NCBI RefSeq assembly: GCF_001306055.1
Contig: NZ_LGHJ01000008.1
Coordinates: forward strand, 60,001 to 92,000
Source of the DNA: Bellilinea caldifistulae
GTDB taxonomy: Bacteria > Chloroflexota > Anaerolineae > Anaerolineales > Anaerolineaceae
Length of the DNA: 32,000 nt
Direction of reading: 5' to 3'
This document shows, one piece after another, positions 3-20,806 of this stretch (the first letter of the stretch is position 1; every line of letters begins with the position of its first letter). Position numbers and translations under genes: made by a program. The notes under the pieces are model-generated. The model was given only the letters and a program-made list of their open reading frames with translations, had not been told where the DNA came from and did not search any database.

Positions 3-431
3 GGTTATGAGGTTGTCGATGGCGAGATCCACTGCATCGAGCACGTGGAAATCTTGCCCGAGGCAATAACCGAGGTTCAGGCCAATGCCCAGCTCAGCCC
101 AGAAAGCCGCTACTGGATTTTGAACGACCTGACCAGCAAGTATTACGAAGCCTACATCCACCAGCCGCGCTTCAACCTGGTTCCGGAGATGGCTCAGATG
201 AGCAGCAGCTGCGGCGGGGATGGCGTCTGCACAGCCGAAACCCAGGTGCTCAATGTGCCCTTTGCCGATCCAGGCACTTTCAACCTGAGAATGTGGGTGT
301 ACACCGCTGGAACGTTCTTCAACTGGAACGGTGTGTCCATTCCCATCACACAGCCCAGGGTGCTCTTTACTGAGGACGCCATGCAGGTTTACGTCACCCT
401 GGTCACGTTGCTTCCGGCAGGCGCTCCATGA
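3..431 (+). CDS. hypothetical protein, 5' end upstream of window
   Basis: The frame is open from base 3 with no upstream stop, and the listed ORF 45..431 starts at an internal GTG. Its TGA overlaps the ATG of the next gene (ATGA at 428-431). No recognisable motif. Confidence 0.5.
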   Translation, partial: GYEVVDGEIHCIEHVEILPEAITEVQANAQLSPESRYWILNDLTSKYYEAYIHQPRFNLVPEMAQMSSSCGGDGVCTAETQVLNVPFADPGTFNLRMWVYTAGTFFNWNGVSIPITQPRVLFTEDAMQVYVTLVTLLPAGAP

Positions 432-1126
432 ACGAGCTGGACCGCATTAGTTTATTGCTGACCGATCTGCCGGTGTATTTGGCTAACGGCGTACTGGTCA
501 TCCTGTATTGGCTGGCTGCCCATATGCCTGCCCTGACCAGCCTGCTATGCGCCTTGCTGATGGCATGGCTGCCTGATGCTGAAATCCAGCAGCGCGCCGG
601 TTTTCGCCCGCGTCGCAGCGAGCGCGGTTCCTCCGGTGACTCGGGTGGGAAGATGCCGCGCACTGCCCAGGTGATGACGGGCATGGTGCTGGCAGCCTGG
701 ATCATCGCCCAGTGGGATATGGGAGCGCCGGTGCCCTGGATTGGCGCAGCCATGTGGGTGGCAGGATTGGCAGCCATTTTAGCCTTATCCGCCCAGCGTT
801 TCAACCTGTTGTGGTACGTCAAGGCTGGCATCGCCATGTATGCTCTGGCGGTCATCGGCAGCCGCATTTACCTGGGATACACCGCCGGCCTGACCCCGGA
901 GCAGTGGGCGGCACTGATCGGTTCTTCCGAGAGCGCCGCGGTGGTGATTGCCAACACTCGCAGCAACGTGACCACCATTCTGCTTTGGGCATTATGGCTT
1001 ATCGTGCCTCTCGGTTATTTTTCGATGTTGGTTCAACAGATCTTTATCAATCCAATGTCCATGGTCAACCCACTGGCCGGCGCGCAGGATATGCTGCGCG
1101 CCTTGCGAGTACGGGATTCGCGTTGA
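428..1126 (+). CDS. polytopic membrane protein (hypothetical)
   Basis: Several hydrophobic spans are present (LVILYWLAAHMPALTSLLCALLMAWL, MVLAAWIIAQW, WVAGLAAILALSA, IAMYALAVIGSRIYL, ILLWALWLIVPLGYF). The start overlaps the upstream stop. Confidence 0.6.
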   Translation: MNELDRISLLLTDLPVYLANGVLVILYWLAAHMPALTSLLCALLMAWLPDAEIQQRAGFRPRRSERGSSGDSGGKMPRTAQVMTGMVLAAWIIAQWDMGAPVPWIGAAMWVAGLAAILALSAQRFNLLWYVKAGIAMYALAVIGSRIYLGYTAGLTPEQWAALIGSSESAAVVIANTRSNVTTILLWALWLIVPLGYFSMLVQQIFINPMSMVNPLAGAQDMLRALRVRDSR

Positions 1127-1370
1127 CAGTAGGGGCGGGTCTGCTCATGGCAATCTCGTCACCACATCTACAGGTAGACCCGCCCTTACCTGCAGAGCGC
1201 CACATGCCAGGAACGGAGATCCTAATCCCTCATAAACCATTTCCGCTCCCAGGATGTGTTGCTCTGCGCGGCCTTCGGGCTGTCAAAGGCAACACCAACG
1301 TCGGCCAGGAAGTCGAACGTTGGAAACCAATCCCCACACGTTGGCTTTTTGTACTTACATGGAGGATTTT

Positions 1371-1595
1371 ATGGACCCTTACACGATTGGAAGACTGGCT
1401 CTACCGGTGGTGATCGGCATCATGGCTGTGGCTGCTATTCTGGCACTGGCGATGGGCATTTTCACGGCTGTGAAGACCATGACCAGCGTTCAGCGTTTCT
1501 TCCAGCATATGGAAGAGACACGGCGGCCTGCGGTCACGATCAACTTCTTCGGCGGCAGACGAACTTCCAAACCTCCCATGCGGGCAAAGGAATGA
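1371..1595 (+). CDS. small single-pass membrane protein (hypothetical)
   Basis: GGAGG at 1361-1365 lies 5 nt before ATG 1371 (alternative ATG at 1359). It has one TM segment (LALPVVIGIMAVAAILALAMGIF) and a basic tail. The N-terminal part of listed ORF 1254..1595 is Arg/Cys-rich and looks non-coding. Confidence 0.45.
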   Translation: MDPYTIGRLALPVVIGIMAVAAILALAMGIFTAVKTMTSVQRFFQHMEETRRPAVTINFFGGRRTSKPPMRAKE

Positions 1596-1725
1596 GCAAT
1601 AACTGGACACGATCAGGCGTGGCATGGGTACGCCTGAACTTCCTCCAGATTGGATTGTGGCTTGATATCTGTGGGTGTTCACCCCCAGATGTGAACCCAT
1701 AATCCAAAGATTGCCAGCTAAGGAC

Positions 1726-4700
1726 ATGAACGATCGATCATTTCTCCACTCTATCAAGAAAGTCAGCGACTGGCTGCCAAACTGGTCCAGTTGGCTTCAT
1801 CCGCCTCGCAACGGTACGCCAGCAATTCCCGCTGACCTGCAGGTGGAAAAATCCGGTGTGTGCTTTATCGATGGGCAAGACGAGTTGGACTATCTCTGGT
1901 ACCGGCTGCGAGAGATCGAGGGTGGGCGAGAGTATGCCGGTTTTCGGGTTGTTCGCCTGTTGCAGTTGAGTTTCTTGCCCCTGGAAGCCCGCTCTGACCC
2001 TGGGCTGCTGCAGAAGATGCGCACCGTCTTGCGCGGATTGTACGGGTCACAGGTTAGTTTTCTTTATCTGGCAGCCGGCATCTTCAACCACCAACAGGCT
2101 CCGGTTGGGATTATCCAGTGCTACGGCGTCTCGGCTTTTGCCGAAACCCTGGATGAAGCTTGCGCCCGGTCAAAGCGCAGCCTGGCGGCGCTGAAAGCCG
2201 CTATGAGCGGTACTTATCGCCAGATCCGCCTCGACCCCTTGAATGTCCGCCTGGCTGAATGGATTTTCCTGAGTTTCAACGATATGAAACACGTGCTGGT
2301 CACCGTCGGCCACACAGATCCGCGTGAGAACGCTCGCGGTGGAGGAAGCGGGTTGCTGCATAACCCCCTTACCGATGCCGGTCCGACCGCCCAGCAATAT
2401 ACCCTGCAGCAAAACGAAATCCTGTTTCGCGGCATGAGCGATCTGAAAGAAGAATTCCTGTTCCTGGTGCTCACCTCGCCGGTGCAGCTGGCGGATATCA
2501 CCGAGATGCTCACCGGCCTGGCAGAGAACACATCCACATGGGCTGCCTGGCAAAGCGGCGTGCGCGGCGTTTCATTTGGCGTCAGCCTGCCAGCGTTGCT
2601 CTCTGGATTGATGGCGCAGTCAGCCACCCAGGGATACAGCACCAGCCAGGGCGAAGCTCACAGTGAGGGCCAGGCGCACACCGACAGCCAGGCGCATACC
2701 GAAGGTCAGGCTCACACCCAGGGTTTTGCCGAGACGCAAGGCTGGTCGCATGTCGAAACAGACGCAGAGTCGCATTCATTTGGTATCGCCCATTCTCAGG
2801 GACAATCGCACACCGAAGGCCGGGCCGTCACCGAAGGGACGGCAGTTACGGAGAGCAGCGGTCACGTCAGCAGCCGCGGTTCCGGCAGCAGCCATGTGGA
2901 CAGCTTCAACTGGGGGTTGCGCGGCGGCATCCAACCAGCCGGGGTAGGCATCGGCGGCAATGTCGGCTGGGGGTCGGCGGATGGCGTCTCCAGTATGGTT
3001 TCAGAGAGCGACATGCAAGGCCATTCTGAGACAGAGAGCCATGCTGAAACGGAAAGCCAGGCGGATACCGTCAGCCAGGGTACCGTGGTCAGTGAAGTCT
3101 TGACGATCACCCATGCAGAGTCGAACGGTGTCTTTGGCAGCCACACACGTTCCCAGTCGGACACGGTCAGCCAGGCGGATACCGCCGGGCAAGCCGATAC
3201 CAAAAGCTCAGCCGACAGCCAGATGCAATCCCAAACTGCAGGTCAAGCGCTGGGCAGAGGGGTATCGGCTGGACTGACGGTGGGTATTGCCCCGTCTCTC
3301 TCTGCCTCGAACAGCTATCAATGGCAGTTCGATCCGGCTATCCTGGTGACCCAGATCTTGCGCCAGCAGCAAAATTTACTGAATCTGGCCAGCAAAGAAG
3401 GGGCGTACTACACCGATGTCTACGCCATGGCGCGCACCGAGCAGGGTAAGCAGGCTTTGATGGGCTTGATTCCTGAATCATTTCACGGGACGGAAGATGT
3501 GATTACCGGTGTGCAGACACGGGATTTAACCCTCGAAGAGAGCGATTACATCAGTCTGCATGCTCGTGCATTTACCCCATCGACCCGGGTTGAGACGATC
3601 CCGGAAGTGCTCAGTGGTTACATGGACTCCACCCTGCTGACCATGTTGCAATTGGCGGCCTACACCGCTCCCGGGATGTTCGAGCAGGGCACTGCGCTGA
3701 CGGTCCAAGAATCCACGCCTGATTTTGCCTTCCGCCCGGGTATGGCTGGCGATGTGATCATCGGCTGGCAGTGGAGCAGCGAGACCGGGCAGTTGACCCA
3801 CACGCCGCTGCGCCTGAGTTTTGACCGCCACTTCCATACCGCTTTCTGCGGGGATACCGGCTTTGGCAAGAGCGTCGCCGCTGAAAGGCTCGCCTATGAA
3901 ACCACGCGTCAATGGCACTTCCGCAGCGTGGTGCTGGATTTTGGTCAGGGCTGGCGGCGGGCTTTGAACTGGTCCGGGCTGGATGGACGCGTAGATATCC
4001 GCCAGCTCTATCCTGGCGCGCCGCGTCCACTGCGCTGGAACATATTGAAAGTCCCGCGGCGCCTGTACCCAGGGCGCTACCGCACGCTGGTCAGCGAGCT
4101 TTTCGCCAACGCCGGGCGTATGGGACCCCGTCAGCTAGGCTTCCTGCGCCGCGCTCTCACCCAGGTCTACACCAATTTGGGCATCCTGACCACCGACCCA
4201 GAAGTGATCAACCACCAGACCTGGGGGCATTTACAGGACAGCGTGGAAGTGGCTGTCATCCAGGAGTGGCGTGACCACAACCGAATCTCAGGATCGGTTT
4301 CTGTCGGGCACTCCATCTCTGATTTGCACCCAGGGGAGTTGCAGAACCTGGCAGTCTGGCGCAGCCAGCGAGCCGACGTGCGCATGTGGGTGGAACGACT
4401 GAAGAACTTCTACGCTATGCTGCCCAAGGGTGACCAGGCCAGCCGAGCCAGTTTGGAAGGCGTCTTGCTGCGTGTGGAGCAGTTCGCCGAAGGGCAGATG
4501 GCCTGGCAGTACGGTGCCGGTGCAGAAAGCGTTCCGGTAGAAGATTTGGGATTGCTGGGACCGGCAGAGGATCCCTGGGGATTGTTGATCGTTGAGGGCG
4601 GCGCGGAGATGGATGAATACCCCAAGGCTGCGTTGTTGGCGTTGCTCTCCAGCGTACTGTATTTCGATAGTGTCGTCCGCCGGCGAGAAAGCCTGGCTGG

Positions 4701-5178
4701 AGCGAAATTTCCACCCATGCAGATCTTCTTCGAGGAAGCCAACAAAGTCCTGACCGGCGTGAGCGGTGCAGCCGCAGATCAGAACGTTTCCGCCGGCAGT
4801 GCTGAGCAAGTCAGCGAAGTATTCCAGACTTTCTGGAGAGATGGCCGTAAATACCAGATCTTCCTGCATTTAATCGCCCAGACGGTCAGCGCCTTGCCTG
4901 CAGGTATTTTATCTTCCTGCAACAATGGCTTTTTCTTCCAGACCAAATTTCCCCACGACCGAGACTTGATCATGGCGCACATCGGGCGCAGCGAGAAGGG
5001 CGTGGTCAACACTGAATACAAGCGCTACCTGGCGCGCATCCCAAAGCGCATGTCCATCGCAAAGCTGGGTTACAGCGAGGATGTGGCCGAGTTGGAGCCG
5101 ATGCTGGTGAGTCCGTTGATGGTGCCTGGCAGCGAGCCATCCGACCAGGAAATCCTGGCGAGGCTCGGGCCTTATTAG
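1726..5178 (+). CDS. giant HerA/FtsK/VirB4-type P-loop ATPase with central hexad-repeat region
   Basis: Walker A is GDTGFGKS (3850-3873), followed by VVLDFGQGW. The Walker B-like motif is IFFEEAN (about 4723-4743). The first ATG in the ORF is at 1726 (MNDRSF). About 200 aa of period-6 low-complexity repeats lie between the N-terminal and ATPase domains. Confidence 0.8.
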   Translation: MNDRSFLHSIKKVSDWLPNWSSWLHPPRNGTPAIPADLQVEKSGVCFIDGQDELDYLWYRLREIEGGREYAGFRVVRLLQLSFLPLEARSDPGLLQKMRTVLRGLYGSQVSFLYLAAGIFNHQQAPVGIIQCYGVSAFAETLDEACARSKRSLAALKAAMSGTYRQIRLDPLNVRLAEWIFLSFNDMKHVLVTVGHTDPRENARGGGSGLLHNPLTDAGPTAQQYTLQQNEILFRGMSDLKEEFLFLVLTSPVQLADITEMLTGLAENTSTWAAWQSGVRGVSFGVSLPALLSGLMAQSATQGYSTSQGEAHSEGQAHTDSQAHTEGQAHTQGFAETQGWSHVETDAESHSFGIAHSQGQSHTEGRAVTEGTAVTESSGHVSSRGSGSSHVDSFNWGLRGGIQPAGVGIGGNVGWGSADGVSSMVSESDMQGHSETESHAETESQADTVSQGTVVSEVLTITHAESNGVFGSHTRSQSDTVSQADTAGQADTKSSADSQMQSQTAGQALGRGVSAGLTVGIAPSLSASNSYQWQFDPAILVTQILRQQQNLLNLASKEGAYYTDVYAMARTEQGKQALMGLIPESFHGTEDVITGVQTRDLTLEESDYISLHARAFTPSTRVETIPEVLSGYMDSTLLTMLQLAAYTAPGMFEQGTALTVQESTPDFAFRPGMAGDVIIGWQWSSETGQLTHTPLRLSFDRHFHTAFCGDTGFGKSVAAERLAYETTRQWHFRSVVLDFGQGWRRALNWSGLDGRVDIRQLYPGAPRPLRWNILKVPRRLYPGRYRTLVSELFANAGRMGPRQLGFLRRALTQVYTNLGILTTDPEVINHQTWGHLQDSVEVAVIQEWRDHNRISGSVSVGHSISDLHPGELQNLAVWRSQRADVRMWVERLKNFYAMLPKGDQASRASLEGVLLRVEQFAEGQMAWQYGAGAESVPVEDLGLLGPAEDPWGLLIVEGGAEMDEYPKAALLALLSSVLYFDSVVRRRESLAGAKFPPMQIFFEEANKVLTGVSGAAADQNVSAGSAEQVSEVFQTFWRDGRKYQIFLHLIAQTVSALPAGILSSCNNGFFFQTKFPHDRDLIMAHIGRSEKGVVNTEYKRYLARIPKRMSIAKLGYSEDVAELEPMLVSPLMVPGSEPSDQEILARLGPY

Positions 5179-5205
5179 ACAAATATCCACAAGGAGGTTT
5201 CTCAA

Positions 5206-6111
5206 ATGGAAAAACGACGTTCCCCCTGGATTGCAATCATTTTAGCCGTGGTCATCGGCTTGATGGTGATCGTGCTTCTCAACGGCGTGATCCGGCCGAC
5301 TACTGTCGTGGTGGCCAGGGTAGCCATTGCCCCCGGAACCCGCCTGACGGCAGATCTGCTCGAGCTGCGCACCATCCCGGCGCAAGCCCGGCCGAGAGAC
5401 GCCTTCGAGAGAATCGAAGACCTGCAGGATAAGGTGCTTGCAGTGGGTCGTGCACCAGGTGACTACATCGTCGCCTCCGCCCTGGGCGAAACCGCCCAGG
5501 CTGGCATCCCGGCTAACTTGCCAGCCGATCACCTGGCTGTGGCGGTAAAGGTGGATCTGGCTACCGGGATCGCCGGTCTGCTGCGGGAAGGTCAGACGGT
5601 TACCTTGATTGGAATGCTCTCCCCGGATGTACTGCAGAGCGTCGTATCTGCCCCGATACCGGTTAACTCATCTTTCCTGGCGCAGCCAACTTCAGAAGCA
5701 GTCGTTGCCGGGTTGCCCACCCCAACCCCCACGCCTACCCCGACTCCTGCCCCACCCATGGCTCCGTTGGCGCGCATTGCGATCAGCGGCTTGAAAGTGC
5801 TGATGGTGCCGCAATCGTTCCGCTATGAGGAGTTGCCTGGCGGTTCCACCCAGGAGCAGCTATTCGCCAGCGCCCGCACCGTATCAGCAGCCCAGGAAGG
5901 CAACGTGATCGTCCTGGATGTCCCCGCTACCCCAATCGAGATCGTACCCGGATTGCCGGTCAACCCCACCACGCTGATCGTCGCCTTGAGCAAGTACGGC
6001 AGCCTGTACCTGACCCTGGAGTCAGCCGAAGGTTTTCAGGCGCCCGACATCCTGACCCTCAACCTGGCAGATCTGTACGATGCCATGAATGAAGATCGTG
6101 GAGGCAAGTAA
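5206..6111 (+). CDS. cpaB: Flp pilus assembly protein CpaB/RcpC-like
   Basis: AAGGAGG lies upstream of the ATG. It has an N-terminal TM, a SAF-like segment (VVVARVAIAPGTRLTADLLELRTIP), a PTPTPTPTPTP linker, and sits directly before tadZ/cpaF. Confidence 0.75.
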   Translation: MEKRRSPWIAIILAVVIGLMVIVLLNGVIRPTTVVVARVAIAPGTRLTADLLELRTIPAQARPRDAFERIEDLQDKVLAVGRAPGDYIVASALGETAQAGIPANLPADHLAVAVKVDLATGIAGLLREGQTVTLIGMLSPDVLQSVVSAPIPVNSSFLAQPTSEAVVAGLPTPTPTPTPTPAPPMAPLARIAISGLKVLMVPQSFRYEELPGGSTQEQLFASARTVSAAQEGNVIVLDVPATPIEIVPGLPVNPTTLIVALSKYGSLYLTLESAEGFQAPDILTLNLADLYDAMNEDRGGK

Positions 6112-6115
6112 AGTC

Positions 6116-7426
6116 ATGGACAAAATGCCGATTGCCGAGCAAAAGGTGACCGTGATGCTGGCTGGACCGGGACATGAGACGGTCTTTTACCAGATGCAGC
6201 CGCCATTTCTCTCGGACACACGTTTCGTGATCAGCACACACGCCACGCAGTGGAGCAACTTTGAGCAAAGCCTGAGCCAGATGCGCCCCGACCTGGTTGT
6301 GGTGCAGGTAGAAGTTGCACCGGGTCCCGATGCGCTGATCCAGGTGCTGGCGGAAATACAGGTGTGGCGCGGCGTTGCCATTCTGATCTTGCCGCCCGCA
6401 ATCCGAGAGTTGCGAGCGCAGTTCGAGAATGCTGCCATTGTTCGTGGGGTCTACATTGCCCCTGTAAATTGGGGTGAGATCGCCCAAGCCGGTTACGCAG
6501 CTGTGATCACCGAGCGCGCCAAAGCCGCCGCCACCGCGCCGATGCAGCAGGCCTATCTGTCGCGCTCAGCTGGTGCAATCATTGGCACGCGTGTTGTCGC
6601 GTTTGTCTCAGCTACCGGCGGAACGGGTCGTTCAACCATCGCCGAAAGCCTGGCTTATGAATTGAGCGTGCGCATGAATGTACGTTCTTTGCTGATGTCT
6701 TTTGATTTACCCCCAACCGCTGCCCCGCACTTCAAAATGCGCTACGTCCCCAGCGCCATGGAGTATTTTGCCCGCCCAGGAGATGGCTTTGGGGCGTCGA
6801 TCCAATCTCGCGAGGGGATGGACGTGCTCCTGGCTCCTGAGAACTCGGTCGATTATCAGAAGGCGGCTGAATACTCGATCTCTCACAAGTCAGAAGCCGA
6901 CAGCATCTACTCCCTGGTGATGGCCTCCTGGACGCGTAATTATGCCGCGGTGCTGCTCGACCTTCCAGCAGGCGAACAACCCTGGAGCATGCAGGGGATA
7001 GCAGCTGCCAACACCGCCGTAATTGTCACCCGCTGCACTTTAGCGGATATGGTCGCTGCCCGCCACACACTGATCTTGCTTCTGGAGCGCCTGATTGGCG
7101 AGCACCGCATCCCACGCGAATCAATCTGCCTGGTGCTCAACCAGGTTACGGATAACTCGATGATCTCGGTACGAGGTTTTTATGATGAGTTGGTGAATGG
7201 TTACGGCTGGGCGCCTCCGGTGGTGGCTGTGATTCCCTACACCCCGGCGATCATCCACGCGCAGGACCAGCAAGTGCCGGCGGTCACACGCGTCGAGGAA
7301 CTGGCTAAAGGCATCCATAACCTGGCAGATTTCCTTTTCCCCGGCGCAGTCACATCGATCCTGGATAACCGCAATGGGCGTGGTCATAAAAGCAAGCTGC
7401 GCATCCCTCGTTTCCGGTTCACATAA
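6116..7426 (+). CDS. tadZ: TadZ/CpaE-like pilus localisation ATPase (pseudo-receiver plus ParA/MinD domain)
   Basis: A deviant Walker A region is present (VAFVSATGGTGRSTIAESLA). The N-terminal receiver-like fold lacks the phospho-Asp (DLVVVQVEV). GGAGG at 6100-6104 favours ATG 6116 over the listed 6089. Confidence 0.8.
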   Translation: MDKMPIAEQKVTVMLAGPGHETVFYQMQPPFLSDTRFVISTHATQWSNFEQSLSQMRPDLVVVQVEVAPGPDALIQVLAEIQVWRGVAILILPPAIRELRAQFENAAIVRGVYIAPVNWGEIAQAGYAAVITERAKAAATAPMQQAYLSRSAGAIIGTRVVAFVSATGGTGRSTIAESLAYELSVRMNVRSLLMSFDLPPTAAPHFKMRYVPSAMEYFARPGDGFGASIQSREGMDVLLAPENSVDYQKAAEYSISHKSEADSIYSLVMASWTRNYAAVLLDLPAGEQPWSMQGIAAANTAVIVTRCTLADMVAARHTLILLLERLIGEHRIPRESICLVLNQVTDNSMISVRGFYDELVNGYGWAPPVVAVIPYTPAIIHAQDQQVPAVTRVEELAKGIHNLADFLFPGAVTSILDNRNGRGHKSKLRIPRFRFT

Positions 7427-7446
7427 TCCACTGAGGAGTAGCTGGC

Positions 7447-8787
7447 ATGTTCAACGATGGTAACGGCAATGGAAAGGGATTGGCAGGTCTGTATGACCTC
7501 AGCCAGAGCGCCAGTCGCCCGGTCGATGAAGCCTTGAGAGAAGTGGTTGCTAACGAAGTGATTGACCAGATCAACCGGGAGTTCCCGGTGGAAACCTTGC
7601 GATCGCCCTCCGACGCTGACCGGCAGCGTATTCAAGAACGTATCAATGCCCTGGTAGGGGTGTCTTTCCGACGCAACAACACTTATTCCGGCTACCAGAC
7701 CGACAGCGCCCTGGCGGCTGAATTAGGCCGGCGCCTGATGGGTCTGGGTTTTCTGGATCTGCTGTTACCGCCAGCCCGAACCGACCTGTCAGAAATCTGC
7801 ATCTACTCCAGCGGGCTGGTGCAAGTGATGAAGAAGAACTCCGTCCGTTGGGAGACGCTGCCCGAGTTGAAACCTGATCCCGGCGAGATCAACCGGGTAC
7901 TGGATCGCATCCTGGGTCCGCAAAACAAGAGCCTGAATGAAGCCAATCCCACGGTCAACGCCAAGCTTCCCGCCACACCGCACAATCCCGGCGGCGGGCG
8001 AGTCAAGGCGCTGCATCCGGTCATCGCCCCACCTGGGCGCAATCCGAGCATCAACATCCGTCTGTTCGAGCAGAAGCCGGTTTTACCGGGGTGGATTCTG
8101 GACCGCCAGATGATGAGCGCCGAAATGATGGATCTGCTGCGAAGGGCTATCGAACAGGGCTACCGCATCCTGATCACCGGTGGGACGCGCACTGGCAAGA
8201 CCACCCTCCTCTCGGCGCTATGCAATTTTCTGCCCTCTGCCTGGCGCATCGTCAAGATCGAAGACCCGGAGGAGATCTGGATTGACCGTTCAACAGTGCA
8301 GACCATCGAAGCCCGCCCGGCTGCGCTCGGCACGGAAATCCAGCCCTATACGCTGGCGAATGGTGTGGATGACGCCCTGCGCATGTCACCGGACTACCTC
8401 ATCCTGGGCGAAGTGCGGGATGGTCACGCCGGATTGAGCCTGTTTCGGGCGATGATGACCGGGCACTCGGGTGCCTGCACCTTCCATGCCGATAACCCGC
8501 GCGAAGCCGTGCGACGCCTGACAACGGTTTTGGGGGCTGATGCCGGTGTTAGCCCATCGGACGCCTTGCAGTTGATCGCCGAGGCGATTGACCTGCTGGT
8601 GCAGATAGGCATTCGAGATGAGGTGCGTCGGGTGACGGTGATCGCCAATGTCGCCAAGGAACTCGTAAATGGCGATATCAGATTCGAGCCAATCTATCGC
8701 CTGGACGACCCATCGCCAGAAAGCCAGCCGCATTGGACAAAAGTTGGCAATCTTCGCCCGCGTATCCTGGCGGAGACGAGCCTGTAG
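7447..8787 (+). CDS. cpaF: CpaF/TadA secretion ATPase
   Basis: Walker A is GGTRTGKTTLL, the Asp box is VKIEDPEE, Walker B is LILGEVRDGHA and the His box is TGHSGACTFHA. Confidence 0.95.
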   Translation: MFNDGNGNGKGLAGLYDLSQSASRPVDEALREVVANEVIDQINREFPVETLRSPSDADRQRIQERINALVGVSFRRNNTYSGYQTDSALAAELGRRLMGLGFLDLLLPPARTDLSEICIYSSGLVQVMKKNSVRWETLPELKPDPGEINRVLDRILGPQNKSLNEANPTVNAKLPATPHNPGGGRVKALHPVIAPPGRNPSINIRLFEQKPVLPGWILDRQMMSAEMMDLLRRAIEQGYRILITGGTRTGKTTLLSALCNFLPSAWRIVKIEDPEEIWIDRSTVQTIEARPAALGTEIQPYTLANGVDDALRMSPDYLILGEVRDGHAGLSLFRAMMTGHSGACTFHADNPREAVRRLTTVLGADAGVSPSDALQLIAEAIDLLVQIGIRDEVRRVTVIANVAKELVNGDIRFEPIYRLDDPSPESQPHWTKVGNLRPRILAETSL

Positions 8788-8801
8788 GAGGTGAGAACAC
8801 G

Positions 8802-9686
8802 ATGATAACCCTGGTAGGTATTCTGGCAGGACTTTTGGTTTATGTTCTCTTTGCGCCGCGTCGTGTCCGGCGTGGCGAAGCCAGCCAGCGCATTGCTGAG
8901 CTGTATTCACTCGAAACAGCGCGTTCCTTGAGTGAGTTGAAGCCGGGATCGTTGGATTATAAGCTGCTCGCTGCCGGCGTGCGCATGCAGCCAGTCACCT
9001 TCCGGCTACTCACTATCGCCGTGGCGGTGGCTGCAGGGGTCATCACTTGGCCCTTTCTGCCAGGTTTGCCCGCCTTGATCATCGGCGTCGTCGCAGGGTA
9101 TTTACCATACGCCTGGCTGGATGACCGGGTCAAAAGCCGCGGCAGGGAAATCGATCGCTTGCTGCCAGTTGCCGTAGGTCGGATCACAGCCGGTTTGCTG
9201 GCGGGGAGTTCGGTGCCCGAGGTTCTGCAGAAGACCGGCGAGTCATTGGAAGTAGAAGGTCCCAACCCGTTGACTGCGGAGCTCATGCTGACCGCGGCAG
9301 AATTGCGCAGCAAAGAACGCCAGCAAGCCCTGCGCGGTCTGGCTGCTCGTTCGCCTTCTACCTCGCTCTCCAATCTGGCTTACCTGCTGGATGGTTACAG
9401 CGAAGCCGGCGGTAGTAAGTATGCTGAAGTCCTGCAGCAGATTTCTCAGCGCATCCAGCAAATCCTGGTGGCGCGCAACCGCGCCGTCGCTAAGGCTGGC
9501 GATGCATTGCTCTCCGCCCGCATCATTCCGGTTGTCCTGCTGATCGTCTTCCTGTTTCTCACCCGTGATCCGCTGATCCAGGAATCGCTCCTCTCCCTGC
9601 CCGTTCAGATAGTGATCTCGGCTGGAATCGGGATGATGGTGTTGGGTTATCTGCTGATTCGTTCCATTGTATCGGAGGCGGTATGA
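8802..9686 (+). CDS. tadB: TadB-like platform protein (T2SS-F domain)
   Basis: AGGAGGTG at 8786-8793 precedes ATG 8802 (MITLVGILAG), so the listed start 8733 is probably too long. It has an N-terminal TM, a cytoplasmic helical domain and C-terminal TMs, and follows cpaF. Confidence 0.8.
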   Translation: MITLVGILAGLLVYVLFAPRRVRRGEASQRIAELYSLETARSLSELKPGSLDYKLLAAGVRMQPVTFRLLTIAVAVAAGVITWPFLPGLPALIIGVVAGYLPYAWLDDRVKSRGREIDRLLPVAVGRITAGLLAGSSVPEVLQKTGESLEVEGPNPLTAELMLTAAELRSKERQQALRGLAARSPSTSLSNLAYLLDGYSEAGGSKYAEVLQQISQRIQQILVARNRAVAKAGDALLSARIIPVVLLIVFLFLTRDPLIQESLLSLPVQIVISAGIGMMVLGYLLIRSIVSEAV

Positions 9687-10540
9687 CGATTATTTACCTG
9701 CTTGGACTTGCGACCGCAACCTTGCTGATCGTCTTATGGGTCGAGTTTGTGCCTAGCCTTCCCTCGGGTAGAGCGGCGCGCTATCTTCGCGAGAGCGACC
9801 AGCCAGCAAATCCCGAGCTGCCCGGTTGGCGGAAGTGGCTGGCCTGGCTGGATCGCCCCACAGCGCGCTGGGCTCCCGGTTCGATTCTCAGGCGGACGAA
9901 AGCAGACCTCTATTTTGCCCAGCTTGCCGGTAAGTGGCAGGGCTGGGACGAAGTTCAGTTTACCTCCCTCAGGGTTGCCCTGGCTTTAGGCGCGCTCGTG
10001 TTTGGGTTGCTGGTCTATGACGACCTGATTCCGAGTGTAATCGCTGCCTTGTTGGGTTGGCAGGTGCCTGTGGTGCTATTGGGCGGCGTCGCTCGCCGGG
10101 TGCGCCGGCGTTTCCAGGCGCAGCTCCCTGAATTCATCCAGCTCGTGGCGGCCCAGATGGCTGTTGGCGTCTCTTTGGAAGAAGCTCTACGGCGAACCGC
10201 CCAGATGGACAGCCTGGCTGCGCAGTGGATGCGCCACGTGCTGAAGATGTCTCAGGGCCGCGTCATCTTCACCCAGTTGCAGAAGGAAGCCCAGGCTTCG
10301 AATATGCCTGACTTGATCGGGCTGGCAGTGCAGTTGGAATTCGTGCGCTTGGGAACCGCCCAGCAAGAGCTGATGGCGCAGATGGCCAATCGCATCGCTG
10401 CAGAATATACCGGCGGAGCGGAACAGCGCGCCGAGCGTGTCGGCGCGGAGCTGGTCATTCCCATGGTGGTTTTCTATTTCTTGCCCTTCATTGCCGTCAT
10501 CCTGGCTTTGATCGGCTGGCCGATATTGGCAACGTTGTAA
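9683..10540 (+). CDS. tadC: TadC-like platform protein (T2SS-F domain)
   Basis: It has an ATGA overlap with tadB and the same TM / helical domain / TM layout (LPEFIQLVAAQMAVGVSLEEALRRTA). Confidence 0.8.
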   Translation: MTIIYLLGLATATLLIVLWVEFVPSLPSGRAARYLRESDQPANPELPGWRKWLAWLDRPTARWAPGSILRRTKADLYFAQLAGKWQGWDEVQFTSLRVALALGALVFGLLVYDDLIPSVIAALLGWQVPVVLLGGVARRVRRRFQAQLPEFIQLVAAQMAVGVSLEEALRRTAQMDSLAAQWMRHVLKMSQGRVIFTQLQKEAQASNMPDLIGLAVQLEFVRLGTAQQELMAQMANRIAAEYTGGAEQRAERVGAELVIPMVVFYFLPFIAVILALIGWPILATL

Positions 10541-10554
10541 AGGATTGTGAGGGT

Positions 10555-10710
10555 ATGCCAATGACGATTACAGAATACTTCGCGGCGCGTGCCGTAGCGA
10601 TTGCGGGTTCCACCTTTGCCTTGGGACTTACCCTGGGGTGGTTTCTCGCCATCCTGCACTTCGGCGGCTCATCCAGCTCATCAAACAAGCGAGATCGAGA
10701 CGAGGATTGA
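10555..10710 (+). CDS. possible small membrane protein with Flp-like TEY N-terminus
   Basis: This ORF is not in the track. It translates as MPMTITEYFAARAVAIAGSTFALGLTLGWFLAILHFGGSSSSSNKRDRDED. AAGGA/GAGGG lie upstream, and the alternative ATG is at 10561. It fills an otherwise empty 175-nt gap in the operon. Confidence 0.3.
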   Translation: MPMTITEYFAARAVAIAGSTFALGLTLGWFLAILHFGGSSSSSNKRDRDED

Positions 10711-10714
10711 GCGG

Positions 10715-11275
10715 ATGAAAGACCGATTGGGGCTGGCTTTCTTCACCTTTGCGGCGGTTGTTTCGGCTTTGGCTGCCTGGGAACAGCCGACCATCCTGGC
10801 CTGGCTGGCAGCTATGCATAACGCCATCCTGGCAGCGCTCTACGCCCGGCGTAAACCGGCGAAGAGTTACGATCAGCGTGGCTTGTGGTTGGGGATACTG
10901 GCTGCTGTACTGCCGCTGGCAACCCTCTATCCGGCTCAGATGCCTGTGCCAATCTTAATCGTCGGTCTACTTGGGTACGGTTTGGTGCTCTGGTCTTTGC
11001 TTGCCTTGGGGGGCAGCTTTGGCATTGGGCCCGCTGACCGCGGTCTGGTCATTCAAGGACCTTATCGTTATATCCGCCACCCTATGTACCTGGGAGAGCT
11101 GATCTTACGGGCTGCCCTAGTAGTCTCTTCGCCTCAACTGCTGCTTGCTGCAACACTACTGTTTGCGCTGATGATTATTCAGGGTGCACGCGCCCTTCGG
11201 GAAGAGCGCATCATCAATGCCTATAACACTTATGCCAGCCAGGTGCGATACCGGCTGATCCCGGGAGTATGGTAA
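10715..11275 (+). CDS. ICMT/PEMT-family membrane methyltransferase
   Basis: It carries the signature GPYRYIRHPMYLGELI of the isoprenylcysteine carboxyl / phospholipid methyltransferase families and several TM helices. The start is trimmed to MKDRLG, with GAGGA 8 nt upstream. Confidence 0.8.
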   Translation: MKDRLGLAFFTFAAVVSALAAWEQPTILAWLAAMHNAILAALYARRKPAKSYDQRGLWLGILAAVLPLATLYPAQMPVPILIVGLLGYGLVLWSLLALGGSFGIGPADRGLVIQGPYRYIRHPMYLGELILRAALVVSSPQLLLAATLLFALMIIQGARALREERIINAYNTYASQVRYRLIPGVW

Positions 11276-12480
11276 TGGAGCTGCAACTGCTGCCCCTGAT
11301 CAGCTACTTCATAGCCGCGGCGTACTTAGCCGCCTGGTTATTCCACCAGTCGTGGGCGCTTGTGGGGCAGCTACGCGCCTGGATATTCCACCATAAGGCG
11401 GCCGGCAGAGTCCTGTCGTTGAGCGCACTGCGGGAAACCAACGATCGGTTTGGAATATTGCTCAAGATCCTTGCTGCAGCCATCGGTATTTTCATCGCGA
11501 ACCGGGCAGTGATCTGGATATCCAGAGAGTGGCTTATCCTGGTATTGGTGGCTGCTGCGGTTTTGAGTGAGGAATTTCGACCTTCGAGGATTGCAATAAA
11601 TCTGCTGGCGGTTACAGTTTTGATGGACCGAATCCACGTTTATACCGAATCGGGTAATGATCTATTCGAGGTGCTATCAAGGGCTGTTCAGGATCTGCCA
11701 GAGGGAGAAGTACAACAGGCGCTGCGAGAAGCCTTACACAGGCGGCGCAGTGGTCTTGCTGCCCAGGAATGTCTGGCATTATTGAGCGGGATCGATCCTC
11801 ATCTGGATGAGTTTGTGCTCACATTGAAACATATCAACTTGCAAACAGGACCTGTTCTGGTTCAGGTGGCTGATCGACTGCACCAGCGCGCGGGTCGAGG
11901 GTGGGATCGCGCCAGCCGGTTTATGCTGACGAAGGAGCATGTCTGGCCTTATCTGCGCATTCTCAGAGCAGCCATCGTAGCCGCTATCATCGTCTTAGAC
12001 TATAACGGCGTCTCCTTGCATTTTAATGCCTGGCCAAGCCACATTACGGCTTTGTGGCTCGGATTGGGACTGATCGCTGCCGGCTTGTTACTCTATTTCA
12101 TCCTCACCAGCAGTTGGCCAAGGCGGGTACTGGCAGTGTTCCTGCTGTTGCTTGTCTCATTCCCCGTTATGAACAGGATCGGTATCCAGAGCCCGTGGTG
12201 GCTCCAGCTAAAAACGGTTACCCATGTCTCGGAAAATCTCATGGCTTCAGAATCCATGGTTGGTGTATCGGTGTCGCAAGAGCAGGTGCAAACTGGGCAT
12301 AAGGGTTTCCCAGAGCAGGAACTTTTGTCTCGAAGCAATTTAAGCTCTGTTCTTCTTCCTGTCCCCACACCATCAATGACCATCACGAACACCGATACAA
12401 CAACTTATTCACTACCATCAAAGGTCTCAGAAGCAGATCTGGAGGAGTTGTGTTGCCATCGTATTTACCAGCCCAGATAA
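11269..12480 (+). CDS. membrane protein, possible third TadB/C-like (T2SS-F-like) paralogue with Ser/Thr-rich tail
   Basis: TM helices flank a helical segment (LFEVLSRAVQDLPEGEVQQALREALHRRRSGL...GPVLVQVADRLHQRAGR) that resembles the T2SS-F fold pattern. The start overlaps the upstream stop. Confidence 0.5.
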   Translation: MVMELQLLPLISYFIAAAYLAAWLFHQSWALVGQLRAWIFHHKAAGRVLSLSALRETNDRFGILLKILAAAIGIFIANRAVIWISREWLILVLVAAAVLSEEFRPSRIAINLLAVTVLMDRIHVYTESGNDLFEVLSRAVQDLPEGEVQQALREALHRRRSGLAAQECLALLSGIDPHLDEFVLTLKHINLQTGPVLVQVADRLHQRAGRGWDRASRFMLTKEHVWPYLRILRAAIVAAIIVLDYNGVSLHFNAWPSHITALWLGLGLIAAGLLLYFILTSSWPRRVLAVFLLLLVSFPVMNRIGIQSPWWLQLKTVTHVSENLMASESMVGVSVSQEQVQTGHKGFPEQELLSRSNLSSVLLPVPTPSMTITNTDTTTYSLPSKVSEADLEELCCHRIYQPR

Positions 12481-12989
12481 TCGCCTGGGCGCTTCTGCTG
12501 GCCTGGCTGGCGATATGCGTGATTTTCGACCTGCGCTCTCGGCAGGTGCCAGCCTTCCTGACCGTCTTGCCGCTAATCCTGGCTGCTGTATGGCAATTAA
12601 TCCAGGGCGGCTGGCAGCTTGTGGTTCTGGTGGCGCTCCTGGTCTTGATATCTGATCTGCCCCAGGCAAAATGGCGCATACCGGTCGCCTGTGCTTCCAC
12701 AGTCCTGGGTCTATGCATTGCAGGGTCGCCGAGCATCGTGTATGCCATGCTGGTTGTTTTTGCTGTCTGGGCGCTGTGGGAGATCGGTGCATCCGGCGGC
12801 GCAGACGCCAAGATCATCATTGCTTTGGTGTTGTTCTTCGCCGACGGATTGCTGTTTATCCCGATTGTCCTGGTGGGCGGCGTCCAGGGACTGGTAGGGT
12901 TGGTTGCCAGGCGGAAAACCATTCCCTATACCGTCGCGATTGCTGTGGGGACGGTCGCCTGGCTGTGGATGATCAGCTATTCCGGTTAA
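12450..12989 (+). CDS. tadV: A24-family prepilin peptidase (TadV/CpaA-like)
   Basis: Both catalytic Asp contexts are present (VIFDLRSRQVP and GGADAKIIIAL). It is all-TM, and GGAGGAG at 12441-12447 precedes the start. Confidence 0.8.
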   Translation: MLPSYLPAQIIAWALLLAWLAICVIFDLRSRQVPAFLTVLPLILAAVWQLIQGGWQLVVLVALLVLISDLPQAKWRIPVACASTVLGLCIAGSPSIVYAMLVVFAVWALWEIGASGGADAKIIIALVLFFADGLLFIPIVLVGGVQGLVGLVARRKTIPYTVAIAVGTVAWLWMISYSG

Positions 12990-13019
12990 CCAAACTCAAA
13001 GAAAGGAGGTGAACAAGTC

Positions 13020-13166
13020 ATGCGTTTCTTACGAGATCGTGCAGCCATTGAAACATCGGAAGTGGCAGTAATTATCGCCGTGGTCGTGCTGGTGGCTTAC
13101 GGAGCTTACCAGCTCCTGGGCGCCCGCATCGCCCAGGTCGTCCAGGATGTCGCTGGACGGTTATGA
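13020..13166 (+). CDS. flp: Flp-family pilin (48 aa)
   Basis: It is below the ORF-track size cut-off. AAGGAGGTG at 13003-13011 precedes the ATG. The translation is MRFLRDRAAIETSEVAVIIAVVVLVAYGAYQLLGARIAQVVQDVAGRL, with a short charged leader, an AIE motif and a hydrophobic helix. It lies between the peptidase and tadE. Confidence 0.7.
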   Translation: MRFLRDRAAIETSEVAVIIAVVVLVAYGAYQLLGARIAQVVQDVAGRL

Positions 13167-13173
13167 ACAACCT

Positions 13174-13210
13174 GCTGGCAAGGGTGGGGTATGGTTCTGC
13201 CCTTGCCAGC
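13174..13210 (+). terminator. stem-loop immediately after flp (attenuator-type, no U tract)
   Basis: GCTGGCAAGGG (13174-13184) pairs perfectly with CCCTTGCCAGC (13200-13210) around a 15-nt loop. Confidence 0.4.
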
Positions 13211-13238
13211 GCCTTACTTGATTATCAGGAGGTCGAAA

Positions 13239-13637
13239 ATGCGATTTCTATTCTCTAAACGTGCGATTGAGACATTGGAAGCTGCCATCACTTTCCCGAT
13301 CGCCATCCTGGTCATGCTTGCGACGGTTAACCTGGGGATGGTGGTGTATGGTCAGCAAGCGGTGCAAGCAGCCGCCCGGCATGGGGCCCGCATGGGTAGC
13401 GTGGCGCAGCAGTGCGGCGCTTGCTATGCCGCCAGCGCAGCCAGCAGCGCTATCGATAGCGACCCAATCGTCAAAGAACCCAGCGTGGCCATCCTTTCCC
13501 CAGGCGGAGTGGCCGGCAGTATCCTGAGCGTGCGGGTTTCGGGCACAATCCCCAGCTTCCTGGGCACCCTGGTTCCCGGATTGCCCGGCAATTTTCCAGT
13601 TTCGGCGGAAGCGACCTTCCGGCAGGAGGGATGGTAA
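13239..13637 (+). CDS. tadE: TadE-like pseudopilin
   Basis: AGGAGG precedes ATG 13239. The N-terminus MRFLFSKRAIETLEAAITFPIAILVMLATVNLG matches the TadE N-terminal pattern. Confidence 0.75.
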   Translation: MRFLFSKRAIETLEAAITFPIAILVMLATVNLGMVVYGQQAVQAAARHGARMGSVAQQCGACYAASAASSAIDSDPIVKEPSVAILSPGGVAGSILSVRVSGTIPSFLGTLVPGLPGNFPVSAEATFRQEGW

Positions 13638-14080
13638 TGATGCTCAAGCTGCTGCAAGATAAACGCGCTTACTCGTTGACCTTCTGGACAGTCTTCTTTG
13701 GCTTTGTCCTGATCCCGATCATGGCTTTAGGGATCGAGCTGGGCCGTTACTACTACGCCAGGGCGGAGATAGCCAAGGCAGCCGATGCCGCCGCCCTGGC
13801 TGCCGCTGCGGAAATAAGCCAAAGGGTGTTTGAGGAAACGGGGGACTTGCAGCCTACCAGTAAAACCTGGGCTAACGCCCAGGCCTTTGCCAGTATGAAT
13901 AACGGCTACCTGGCGCAGTATGGGGTAAATGCGGTCGTGACAGGGATAACGGTGGACGCAAAGGATGATACGGTATTGGTGCAGGTATCTGCGAATCTGG
14001 AAAGACTATTTCCAAGCGTGGTGCCGGGTGTGATTGTCACAGAGAGAGGCTTTGCCAAAATTCGCGCATTTACGCATTGA
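13631..14080 (+). CDS. tadG: TadG-like (Tad_N) pilus assembly protein
   Basis: TFWTVFFGFVLIPIMALGIELGRYYYARAEIAKAADAAALAAAAEI matches the TadE/G-like N-terminal pattern. ATG candidates are at 13631, 13637 and 13640. Confidence 0.7.
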   Translation: MVMMLKLLQDKRAYSLTFWTVFFGFVLIPIMALGIELGRYYYARAEIAKAADAAALAAAAEISQRVFEETGDLQPTSKTWANAQAFASMNNGYLAQYGVNAVVTGITVDAKDDTVLVQVSANLERLFPSVVPGVIVTERGFAKIRAFTH

Positions 14081-14947: not shown

Positions 14948-15031
14948 ATTTGCACCTCCTGAAATAGATTTGATTTAGCTGCTCCACCGATTTCAGGATA
15001 GCAAATTAGGTGTCAAGTCTTTGTTAAGTGT

Positions 15032-17408: not shown

Positions 17409-17438
17409 TTGACAAACTATGTAAACTAATGCTATAAT
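17409..17438 (+). promoter_or_regulatory. sigma70-type promoter (TTGACA-N18-TGcTATAAT)
   Basis: TTGACA lies at 17409-17414 and TATAAT at 17433-17438, preceded by TG (extended -10). It sits in an AT-rich gap about 100 nt upstream of the first gene of the + strand module. Confidence 0.55.
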
Positions 17439-20516: not shown

Positions 20517-20806
20517 CCGATGAGTACATCCTTGTACTGAGCGAAGCGAACGTATCTGATGACGGTCCCGGCTCCGACCTGTTCGATCCCTACGAGACCG
20601 GCTGGTGGAAATCTGTCTCCAGCGATGAATCTGCACCTGCAGATCAGCCATGCCCGAATTGCAATGGCGAAGGTTACGTTGTCGTCCGGGTCTATCCCTG
20701 GGACGGCTGTTCGTATGATGAAGAGCCATGCAAGTTCTGTAATCCGAGGAAGGATTACACAGAGCTGGATGACGAGTTCCTAGAGGATGTGGATATCCCC
20801 TTCTAA
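20513..20806 (+). CDS. acidic small zinc-ribbon protein with SSB-like C-terminal tip
   Basis: The start has an ATGA overlap with the upstream stop (the listed start 20432 is too long). It has CPNCNGEG (CxxCxGxG) plus CKFC, and ends ...DDEFLEDVDIPF. Confidence 0.6.
   Translation: MTDEYILVLSEANVSDDGPGSDLFDPYETGWWKSVSSDESAPADQPCPNCNGEGYVVVRVYPWDGCSYDEEPCKFCNPRKDYTELDDEFLEDVDIPF

Follow-up and report, generated by a model that had tools for sequence, protein, structure and literature searches.

Which task does a Tad/Flp pilus operon perform when it is joined to a giant ATPase on a mobile element without recognisable conjugation machinery? This question is raised by a stretch of 32,000 nucleotides from Bellilinea caldifistulae (Chloroflexota; Anaerolineae), here called the window. 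The window is part of a mobile element, integrated and at least 58 kb long, and its positions 3-14080 form the conserved envelope-machine module of that element. What is new here is that a Tad system and a fixed HerA-clade module go together on mobile elements: there is a strong linkage, both tight and wide, of the ATPase family to Tad genes, and the ATPase-Tad module is part of the element's backbone, not of its cargo. Because this pilus-ATPase module stands on elements without recognisable conjugation machinery, it points to a possible, undescribed passage of DNA in single-membrane bacteria. A sequence-only reading of the window had proposed a hybrid of pilus and DNA-translocation machine, headed by a VirB3/VirB4-like pair. 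We consider it well conceivable, although we stop short of calling it probable, that the module is the DNA-transfer apparatus of the element, acting from cell to cell.

Linkage of the ATPase family to Tad genes

All genes of the string at window 3-14080 lie on the + strand, and the open reading frames (ORFs) agree with independent gene calls on DF967971.1 (GCA_001050215.2), the 3.70 Mb source contig, with the region of the element at about 1.21-1.29 Mb. A secreted protein is followed by a polytopic membrane protein, a 74-aa transmembrane (TM) protein, the 1150-aa ATPase and a secretin-less Tad/Flp operon. Junctions within the string are overlaps or gaps of at most 30 bp, except for 1127-1370 (244 bp), which precedes the 74-aa gene, and 1596-1725 (130 bp), which precedes the ATPase gene. 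Every ORF named by the sequence-only reading exists where it had been placed, on the + strand, and matches the independent calls. The description as co-directional, tightly spaced genes also holds, except that the string begins upstream of the window with u198, encoding a 198-aa bitopic protein, and u452, encoding a 452-aa secreted protein. Likewise, all ORFs of the listed Tad set are present, five of them with sub-threshold assignments, but three conserved genes at 10561-12480 had gone unlisted. The genes and motifs are given below; TM segments were estimated throughout by a hydropathy window.

3-431, + strand: 3' end of u452, a 452-aa secreted Cys-rich protein with signal peptide and Pro-rich linker
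428-1126, + strand: m232, polytopic membrane protein with at least four predicted TM segments
1371-1595, + strand: s74, 74-aa single-TM protein just upstream of the ATPase
1726-5178, + strand: 1150-aa HerA-clade P-loop ATPase (NCBIfam NF033849, fold matches)
2566-3315, + strand: Ser/Thr/Gly-rich insert, ATPase residues 281-530 (composition, AlphaFold2 model)
3850-3873, + strand: Walker A motif GDTGFGKS, ATPase residues 709-716
3928-3954, + strand: motif VVLDFGQGW, ATPase residues 735-743
4726-4743, + strand: Walker B motif FFEEAN, ATPase residues 1001-1006
5206-6111, + strand: CpaB/RcpC-like protein (N-terminal TM segment; SAF 6e-7, above cut-off; RcpC 1.5e-5)
6089-7426, + strand: TadZ-like ParA/MinD-type ATPase (weak AAA_31, ParA, MinD, and CpaE_hom_Actino matches; position)
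7447-8787, + strand: CpaF/TadA pilus motor ATPase (PF00437 T2SSE 1e-28, 100.5 bits vs 24.9)
8802-9686, + strand: TadB, platform protein (T2SSF 3.7e-4, sub-threshold; 4 TM segments)
9683-10540, + strand: TadC, platform protein (T2SSF 0.014 over the whole profile, sub-threshold; 4 TM segments)
10561-10710, + strand: 49-aa TM protein
10715-11275, + strand: PEMT/ICMT-type membrane methyltransferase (PEMT 9e-8, ICMT 2e-6)
11275-12480, + strand: 401-aa polytopic protein, conserved only among close relatives
12450-12989, + strand: TadV-like prepilin peptidase, 6 predicted TM segments (Peptidase_A24 3.7e-4, below cut-off; DLRSRQVP and GGADAK by eye)
13020-13166, + strand: Flp-type pilin candidate, 48 aa, MRFLRDRAAIETSEVAVIIAVVV... 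(Flp1_like 0.05; charged leader, hydrophobic core)
13239-13637, + strand: TadE minor pilin (TadE 4e-10, above cut-off)
13637-14080, + strand: TadG minor pilin (Tad 2e-10, above cut-off)

A scan of one genome per species revealed 139 places that encode ATPase relatives, 80 of which were retained as loci. All of these belong to Anaerolineae or other Chloroflexota, apart from one contig of a metagenome-assembled genome labelled Desulfuromonas. Neighbours were counted by tblastn of the window proteins against the 80 loci, whereby only loci with enough flanking sequence were considered. In 46 of 49 such loci, cpaB-tadZ-cpaF lie directly downstream of the ATPase gene. The exceptions represent a single subclade (L048-L053, L055, L073, and L075; about 53% identity), which also shows extra genes between the upstream set and the ATPase. 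Upstream conservation was assessed in 50 loci with at least 5 kb of upstream sequence: m232 was found in all of them, u452 in 48, and u198, directly ahead of u452, in 46. Eleven assemblies hold two to three diverged copies of the ATPase locus.

The association extends beyond close relatives. Remote family members, with 20-27% identity and located on contigs of 38-63% GC, adjoin Flp, TadE, and TadG genes (L178 and L179) and the gene of a single-stranded DNA-binding protein (SSB; L178). One remote locus reads SSB-Flp-Flp-TadE-TadG-...-ATPase-ParM-like; another reads TadE-TadG-...-ATPase, followed farther on by a cell-wall hydrolase and a Dam-type methylase. Genes matching Pfam Flp_Fap are present in the corresponding cluster of the remote loci.

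In a plasmid collection, the sole two ATPase matches are located on Clostridia megaplasmids, pRUMAL01 of Ruminococcus albus 7 and pB6464 of Alkaliphilus sp. B6464. Both have a complete Tad operon and show the order SSB-x-x-x-ATPase-CpaB-TadZ-CpaF-TadB-TadC-Flp-TadV-TadE, where two or three proteins without known function and a small membrane protein stand between SSB and ATPase, and both modules are found near dnaE and primase genes. Alignment of the R. albus plasmid ATPase with the family covers the full length of the protein (hhalign E 4e-151). MOB-suite, via PLSDB, labels pRUMAL01 as 'mobilizable, MOBP' and pB6464 as 'non-mobilizable', which we read as no mate-pair-formation system detected. 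The absence of phylogenomic linkage between ATPase family and Tad loci, named along with the sequence-only reading as its possible refutation, fails decisively: close loci, remote members and both plasmids keep Tad genes beside the ATPase.

The ATPase, its membrane partners and the pilus genes

All three ATPase motifs pointed out in the sequence-only reading are present. The protein scores 1327.9 bits against NCBIfam NF033849 (ser_rich_anae_1; cut-off 650), with the best-scoring stretch at residues 404-1163 of the 1167-aa ORF translation; this model carries the name 'serine-rich protein' without a functional assignment. Scanned as a single sequence, the window ATPase has no Pfam match at E <=0.01, and no TM segment is predicted in it. 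With the same threshold applied to 39 diverse family members, ten Pfam families were matched. DUF87, the HerA central domain, was found in 13 of the 39 (best E 1.5e-14) and HerA_C in four, compared with three for AAA_10, three for P-loop_TraG and two for FtsK_SpoIIIE; CagE_TrbE_VirB is absent from the ten. The family profile matches HerA/DUF87 chains in the PDB (6.7e-6).

An AlphaFold2 (AF2) model built from 59 diverse homologues reached a mean predicted local distance difference test (pLDDT) score of 75.6 and a predicted template-modelling score (pTM) of 0.70. Residues 30-280 (window 1813-2565) and 531-1150 (window 3316-5175) mostly exceed a pLDDT of 90. In a Foldseek search against the PDB, the top matches were all HerA: Sir2-HerA 8sub (5.8e-12), the DUF87 protein 8yhx, the Sulfolobus solfataricus HerA translocase 4d2i (1.3e-11), and HerA-NurA 9x1m; the HerA-type matches (4d2i, 9x1m, Sir2-HerA) range from 6e-12 to 4e-11. 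VirB4 comes next, with R388 TrwK 8rtd (2.5e-10) and Thermoanaerobacter VirB4 4ag5_B (9.8e-9, TMt 0.67). Since HerA leads and VirB4 is close behind, the ATPase, judged by family profiles and the predicted fold, belongs to the HerA/VirB4 side of the FtsK-HerA superfamily and is nearest to HerA. Superfamily and clade membership are clear; the claim stops short of orthology. The label of a VirB3/VirB4-like pair finds no support, as the window proteins match no VirB3 or VirB4 model in Pfam or NCBIfam, and both the domain counts (DUF87 and HerA_C against AAA_10) and the Foldseek ranking place HerA above VirB4.

An earlier AF2 model, based on 26 close homologues, was poor (pLDDT 50.6). Beta-hairpins seen there in the Ser-rich region are unreliable; the better model has a pLDDT below 50 in this part, and the weak likeness of the first model to pore-forming toxins and a phage tail knob is not to be relied on. 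In BFVD, S5MSQ0, a 913-aa protein of Bacillus phage JL with the annotation 'lipid A export protein Msb', has a structure that matches the ATPase model in its entirety, also in the N-terminal region (7e-15).

The Ser-rich insert of 250 residues lies between two strands of the confidently predicted ATPase fold. Small (S/T/A/G) and polar residues alternate in it with a period of two (autocorrelation about +/-0.5 to lag 13), and its length is kept at 194-262 residues over 25 aligned family members; in the homologue on the R. albus plasmid, it is considerably longer. If the module transfers DNA, the insert may form a beta-structured conduit or gate. The family itself is large: a word-indexed search yielded 272 clusters at 90% identity, and an exhaustive search yielded 294, 478, and 708 clusters at 50% identity for E <=1e-30, 1e-10, and 1e-3, respectively, with full-length members of about 1100-1760 aa.

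The proteins encoded upstream of the ATPase are conserved but resist annotation. The m232 family is 37-72% identical to the window copy, with a mean column identity of 57%, and yields no match in Pfam, NCBIfam or PDB profiles, VirB6 included. For u452, neither Pfam nor the PDB profile search returned a match. u198 has one N-terminal TM segment and by eye appears NTF2/VirB8-like, and it lacks matches in Pfam, NCBIfam and PDB profiles. The membrane protein directly upstream of the remote ATPases weakly resembles m232 (hhalign E about 8e-4, probability about 25%); for u452 and u198, no hhalign similarity to the proteins at the corresponding positions of remote loci was detected. The position of s74 is held by a small ORF in related and remote loci alike (67-75 aa in L177-L179). 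The sequence-only reading had compared s74 to VirB3, and it matches neither VirB3 nor any other family in Pfam or NCBIfam.

The pilus half of the module is a diverged monoderm Tad system. CpaF, TadE, TadG, and the SAF domain of the CpaB-like protein pass the Pfam thresholds, and the match of the CpaB-like protein to TIGR03177 (2e-16) is below cut-off. TadZ, TadB, TadC, TadV, and Flp remain sub-threshold in Pfam, and their assignments are backed by size, TM estimates and gene order. TadB and TadC have no detectable match to each other. The Flp candidate and TadE have the leader motif R-A-(A)-IET-x-E in common. Two start candidates exist for tadE, 13191 and 13239; a 31-aa ORF called at 13163-13258, between flp and tadE, overlaps the longer frame. 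The syntenic plasmid genes are labelled by RefSeq as CpaF, two T2SSF proteins, Flp pilin, A24 peptidase, and TadE/TadG. Of 46 loci whose downstream flank is complete, 29 have the PEMT-type methyltransferase within the pilus operon. It may modify pilin or lipid; we know of no PEMT/ICMT-type methyltransferase in described Tad loci.

Neither the secretin RcpA nor the lipoprotein TadD was found among the scanned ORFs. Tad systems have been adapted to monoderms several times through loss of the secretin (PMC6668835), and Chloroflexota are increasingly regarded as monoderm (bioRxiv 10.1101/2025.08.19.671072). The missing secretin is thus to be expected, and since the secretin is a diderm feature, its absence together with that of TadD is no bar to membership in the Tad systems. 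What the sequence-only reading had singled out as 'secretin-less' is ordinary among monoderm Tad systems (PMC6668835).

The surrounding mobile element

Downstream of the pilus genes, the window continues with alternating backbone and cargo, and the element probably ends beyond it. The features are as follows.

14228-16944, - strand: variable cargo, namely a 239-aa exported protein, a histidine kinase and an OmpR-type response regulator (Pfam)
17409-17438, + strand: perfect sigma-70 consensus TTGACA-18 nt-TATAAT with TG extension (12/12; consensus match only)
18509-19654, + strand: SWIM-Rad52 annealing protein, backbone
19685-20104, + strand: SSB, backbone
20169-20516, + strand: DUF6166 protein, backbone
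20513-21766, + strand: three small proteins (x97, x141, x154), backbone
21843-23009, + strand: RadC-DUF6573 protein, backbone
23020-24129, + strand: x369, 369-aa protein, backbone
24302-30123, - strand: low-GC cargo (45-49% vs about 58-60% elsewhere) with an ABC transporter ATPase and a sigma-70/GerE-type regulator
30647-32000, + strand: 5' part of a DUF6094 N6-methylase (NPPY motif), running off the window
L082 1083-1171, source record 1286843-1286931: tRNA-Ser(CGA), 164 bp past the serine recombinase
L087 11726-12985: x419, backbone protein beside SSB, upstream of the window (coiled coil, winged helix-turn-helix, PD-(D/E)XK-like)
L087 1-7565 and L175 4763-22741, left of the window: BREX type 1 genes brxA, brxB, brxC, pglX, GmrSD-like, pglZ, and brxL, with HTH_17

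A metagenome scan centred on the Rad52-like protein revealed the downstream order TadV-TadE-TadG-[slot]-Rad52-SSB-(DUF6166)-x97-x141-x154-RadC-[slot]-x369-DUF6094 methylase-helicase-x72-serine recombinase. This order is kept in two clades, in which Rad52 is about 85-90% and about 48% identical, respectively. TadE/TadG are present in 20 of 26 Rad52 loci with at least 8 kb upstream, and SSB and RadC in all 19 with at least 9 kb downstream. Content and length of the slot between TadG and Rad52 differ among related elements. The low-GC block occupies a variable slot as well and also holds three permease-like genes and small proteins. The flanking slots thus vary (BREX types, HEPN/TPR, two-component system, ABC transporter), while the ATPase-Tad and single-stranded DNA modules stay. 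For x369, the PDB profile search was empty. The sigma-70 match stands ahead of a 130-aa ORF and the Rad52-SSB module and is the sole 12/12 match in 18.6 kb.

Past the right edge of the window, the element continues with a group II intron, then a Helicase_C protein, a 72-aa protein and a large serine recombinase up to tRNA-Ser. The recombinase (553 aa; Resolvase, Recombinase, and Zn_ribbon_recom domains) ends 164 bp from tRNA-Ser(CGA), which probably marks the right end of the element. No repeat of the tRNA-Ser 3' end was found in the DNA examined, which stops short of the left end of the element. The intron (RVT_1, GIIM, HNH; L082 5136-6410, source about 1281604-1282878) splits the DUF6094 methylase from the Helicase_C part.

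Upstream of the window, clustering of the ORFs of 81 loci revealed that the conserved block reaches on through SSB, x171, x419, a variable slot, x157, and u198. Both x157 and x171 have one N-terminal TM segment, and neither has a match in Pfam, NCBIfam or PDB profiles. x419 combines a coiled coil and a PadR-like winged helix (PDB profile 1e-4) with a C-terminal PD-(D/E)XK-like motif, PDLVA...VEVETD..K (weak VRR_NUC). It is a possible candidate for an atypical relaxase, a nuclease or another DNA-processing enzyme. In this copy only, an IS-type transposase (HTH_29/HTH_28/HTH_32, weak rve; L001 5134-6462, - strand) sits between x157 and u198, about 2 kb upstream of window position 1.

Farther left follows a block 133-176-377-PAP2, which travels with the element alongside SSB in other contigs. 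The 201-aa PAP2 gene was tried as chromosomal flank and left end and is ruled out, as 133-176-377-PAP2-SSB moves with the element elsewhere. The left cargo slot, on the opposite strand, holds BREX-type defence genes that differ between relatives, some of which carry other BREX-like or restriction sets. In the close relative L175, only a 714-aa UvrD-like helicase follows the BREX genes before the contig ends.

The notion of a mobile element with a leading-region-like module is borne out by the recombinase and the single-stranded DNA genes, and the second refuting condition named with the sequence-only reading, a conserved chromosomal core, did not come about. Inspection of the flanks, which had been proposed along with it, gave a mixed result: the serine recombinase beside tRNA-Ser was found, but no relaxase or oriT was identified. 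In about 70 kb, comprising the backbone and close relatives, no relaxase, coupling protein/VirD4, VirB4, type IV secretion system (T4SS), or phage structural genes were recognised by Pfam, NCBIfam, and PHROGs.

Known systems and possible functions of the module

Monoderm Tad/Flp (type IVc) systems, such as those of Micrococcus luteus and the Cutibacterium acnes plasmids, share with the module CpaF, TadZ, CpaB, TadE/TadG, and the lack of a secretin, along with TadB/TadC, an A24 peptidase and a short Flp, whose counterparts here are putative. Their loci, too, are often found on horizontally mobile DNA, and the M. luteus pilus is needed for DNA uptake (PMC4322843). In contrast, the described systems are not known to include a HerA-clade ATPase, the m232/u198/u452 set or an embedded PEMT-type methyltransferase, and most components here are too diverged for the Pfam thresholds.

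The other half of the module resembles Ced or VirB3/4/6 in layout and HerA in sequence and fold, yet it could be assigned to none of them. HerA translocases (HerA-NurA; Sir2-HerA, DUF4297-HerA, TdpAB) are nearest by Pfam, PDB profile and Foldseek, and Walker A, Walker B, and the C-terminal motif are conserved. The Bellilinea ATPase is twice as long, with an extra N-terminal region of about 250 residues in addition to the Ser-rich insert, and is encoded with membrane proteins and a pilus instead of a NurA, Sir2 or DUF4297 partner. VirB4/TraC with VirB3 and VirB6, as in monoderm mating-pair formation, likewise places a small TM protein and a polytopic protein beside a large ATPase of the FtsK-HerA superfamily on a mobile element, and the ATPase fold matches the VirB4 C-terminal domain (4ag5_B) and R388 TrwK. 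However, no protein of the window matches a VirB4, VirB3 or VirB6 model, the filament genes are Tad and not VirB2-type, and no VirD4, relaxase, VirB8-like or hydrolase components of a T4SS were recognised in the 70 kb inspected. As regards integrative and conjugative elements (ICEs), a large serine recombinase lies near tRNA-Ser at the probable right end, and the DNA examined stops short of the left end; a relaxase, a coupling protein and a mating-pair-formation module were not recognised in this range. The FtsK-like TraB of Streptomyces is a precedent for single-ATPase DNA transfer in monoderms, and the type IVb 'thin' pili of R64 and PAPI-1 are precedents for type IV pili assisting conjugation; TraB is membrane-anchored, independent of pili and moves double-stranded DNA, and the R64 and PAPI-1 pili merely assist a full T4SS. 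The Ced system of Sulfolobales with its Ups pili, and the related Ted, combine a polytopic protein, small TM proteins, a HerA/VirB4-type ATPase and a type IV pilus to exchange DNA among cells (PMC9905601, PMC11868833). Unlike the module, Ced is archaeal, chromosomal and separate from the operon of the pilus, and a conjugative-type pilus is formed by CedA1 as such; the likeness is one of layout only.

If the module transfers DNA, CpaF-driven Flp pili would make and tighten the contact between cells or filaments, and the HerA-like ATPase would pump element DNA through the single membrane, presumably as a hexamer attached to m232 and s74. Two SSBs, the Rad52-type annealing protein, RadC, and the methylase would protect and establish incoming single-stranded DNA, which the serine recombinase would integrate; x419 might serve as a DNA-processing enzyme. 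The sequence is compatible with export of DNA, as in conjugation, and with import, as by archaeal Ced, alike. Within the FtsK-HerA superfamily, the proteins characterised so far either translocate DNA (HerA, FtsK, A32-like packaging ATPases) or power conjugation (VirB4, VirD4). An SSB recurs near the ATPase composite on the Anaerolineae elements (often two to three per genome) and on both Clostridia megaplasmids. Conjugative leading regions are typically marked by SSB and orphan methyltransferases (PMC11541004), and the Flp pili of a monoderm can take part in DNA uptake (PMC4322843). Full-text searches of the literature returned no description of a Tad-HerA association, of a function of NF033849 or of these elements. 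Somewhat more tentatively, we propose that the module may represent a class of conjugation-like machine new to science, in which Tad/Flp pilus, HerA-clade translocase and membrane platform would replace the T4SS, spread on Chloroflexota integrative elements and Clostridia megaplasmids.

Several observations weigh against transfer of DNA by the module. The 250-residue Ser-rich insert, with a pLDDT below 50, has no counterpart in known DNA translocases. The contact of the ATPase with m232 and s74 is read from gene order only, and the ATPase is without a TM segment. In the divergent subclade, the u198-u452-m232 set and the ATPase lack adjoining Tad genes, and the surveyed loci are related by descent, so that fewer independent observations stand behind counts such as 46 of 49 than the figures suggest. 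In the Anaerolineae element, neither a relaxase nor an oriT was identified within the DNA examined, which stops short of the left end; a canonical transfer system further left is therefore conceivable. Finally, Tad loci travel on plasmids and islands purely as adhesins, e.g., on Cutibacterium acnes plasmids (PMC5696575).

This last point leads to the best surviving alternative, which we regard as rather unlikely: an adhesion or aggregation pilus on mobile elements, in which the upstream set and the ATPase would be a monoderm accessory that moves no DNA and acts in pilus assembly, anchoring or secretion of u452. Horizontal transfer of Tad loci is frequent, and plasmids carry them as adhesins (PMC6668835, PMC5696575). 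Giant PKD/Big-domain surface proteins encoded between pilins and ATPase in remote loci, the unusual, non-enzymatic Ser-rich insert and the failure to find a relaxase in the 70 kb inspected are all in favour of this explanation. On the other hand, we know of no type IV filament that includes a HerA-clade ATPase. The module is retained like backbone and does not vary like cargo, SSB is a constant neighbour across two phyla, and no transfer machinery besides the module was recognised on the elements and plasmids. A HerA-clade ATPase is also absent from the type IV filament components summarised in PMC6668835.

Import of DNA by a bacterial analogue of archaeal Ups and Ced is improbable. Here, the pilus would aggregate cells, the ATPase and membrane proteins would pull DNA in, and Rad52-SSB would recombine it. 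The arrangement recalls CedA, CedA1/A2, and CedB, the partners of type IV Ups pili (PMC9905601, PMC11868833); the Tad systems have their origin in archaeal Epd-like pili (PMC6668835), transformation of Micrococcus luteus needs Flp pili (PMC4322843), and an annealing protein and an SSB are encoded alongside. However, the likeness to Ced rests on gene arrangement, and Ced is chromosomal and imports host DNA, whereas the machine considered here is located on self-integrating elements and megaplasmids, which favours self-transfer.

A virus-like element, i.e., a cryptic provirus or a particle- or vesicle-forming element with the ATPase as FtsK/HerA (A32/PRD1-like) packaging motor, is very improbable. 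The weak PHROG matches to a terminase family (3e-6) and to a phage family without function (5e-8), the full-length fold match in Bacillus phage JL and those to A32-like packaging ATPases in BFVD (1e-4 to 1e-2) point in this direction, and phages also carry Rad52, SSB, and RadC. Yet no capsid, portal, tail or lysis genes were recognised in the scanned ORFs, and the tight operon tie is with membrane proteins and a pilus rather than with structural genes. Despite the fold match to S5MSQ0, no relative of the ATPase was found in IMG/VR or, by tblastn, in 50,697 phage genomes. HerA-based anti-phage defence cargo, like Sir2-HerA or DUF4297-HerA, can hardly be credited, although defence HerA complexes are among the best fold matches and the elements are rich in defence genes (BREX, GmrSD, HEPN), as the score against NCBIfam HerA_antiphage is 14 bits (cut-off 800), the adjacent genes include no Sir2, DUF4297 or nuclease effector, and the ATPase position is fixed inside the pilus operon, whereas true defence slots vary.

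For the biology of Chloroflexota, dominant filamentous bacteria of anaerobic digesters and sediments, a literature search on the movement of mobile elements returned nothing. To our knowledge, all characterised bacterial conjugation uses a T4SS or, in actinomycetes, the FtsK-like TraB. A large, unstudied ATPase family, with at least 294 clusters at 50% identity, is now tied to Tad genes and SSB in two phyla. If the module moves DNA, it would add a mechanism of horizontal gene transfer and provide a bacterial counterpart to archaeal Ups/Ced; the widespread 'hypothetical' family NF033849 would gain a function, and tools for typing ICEs and plasmids would appear to misclassify these elements as non-conjugative. 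Should it move no DNA, a new accessory module would still have been defined for the Tad pili of monoderms.

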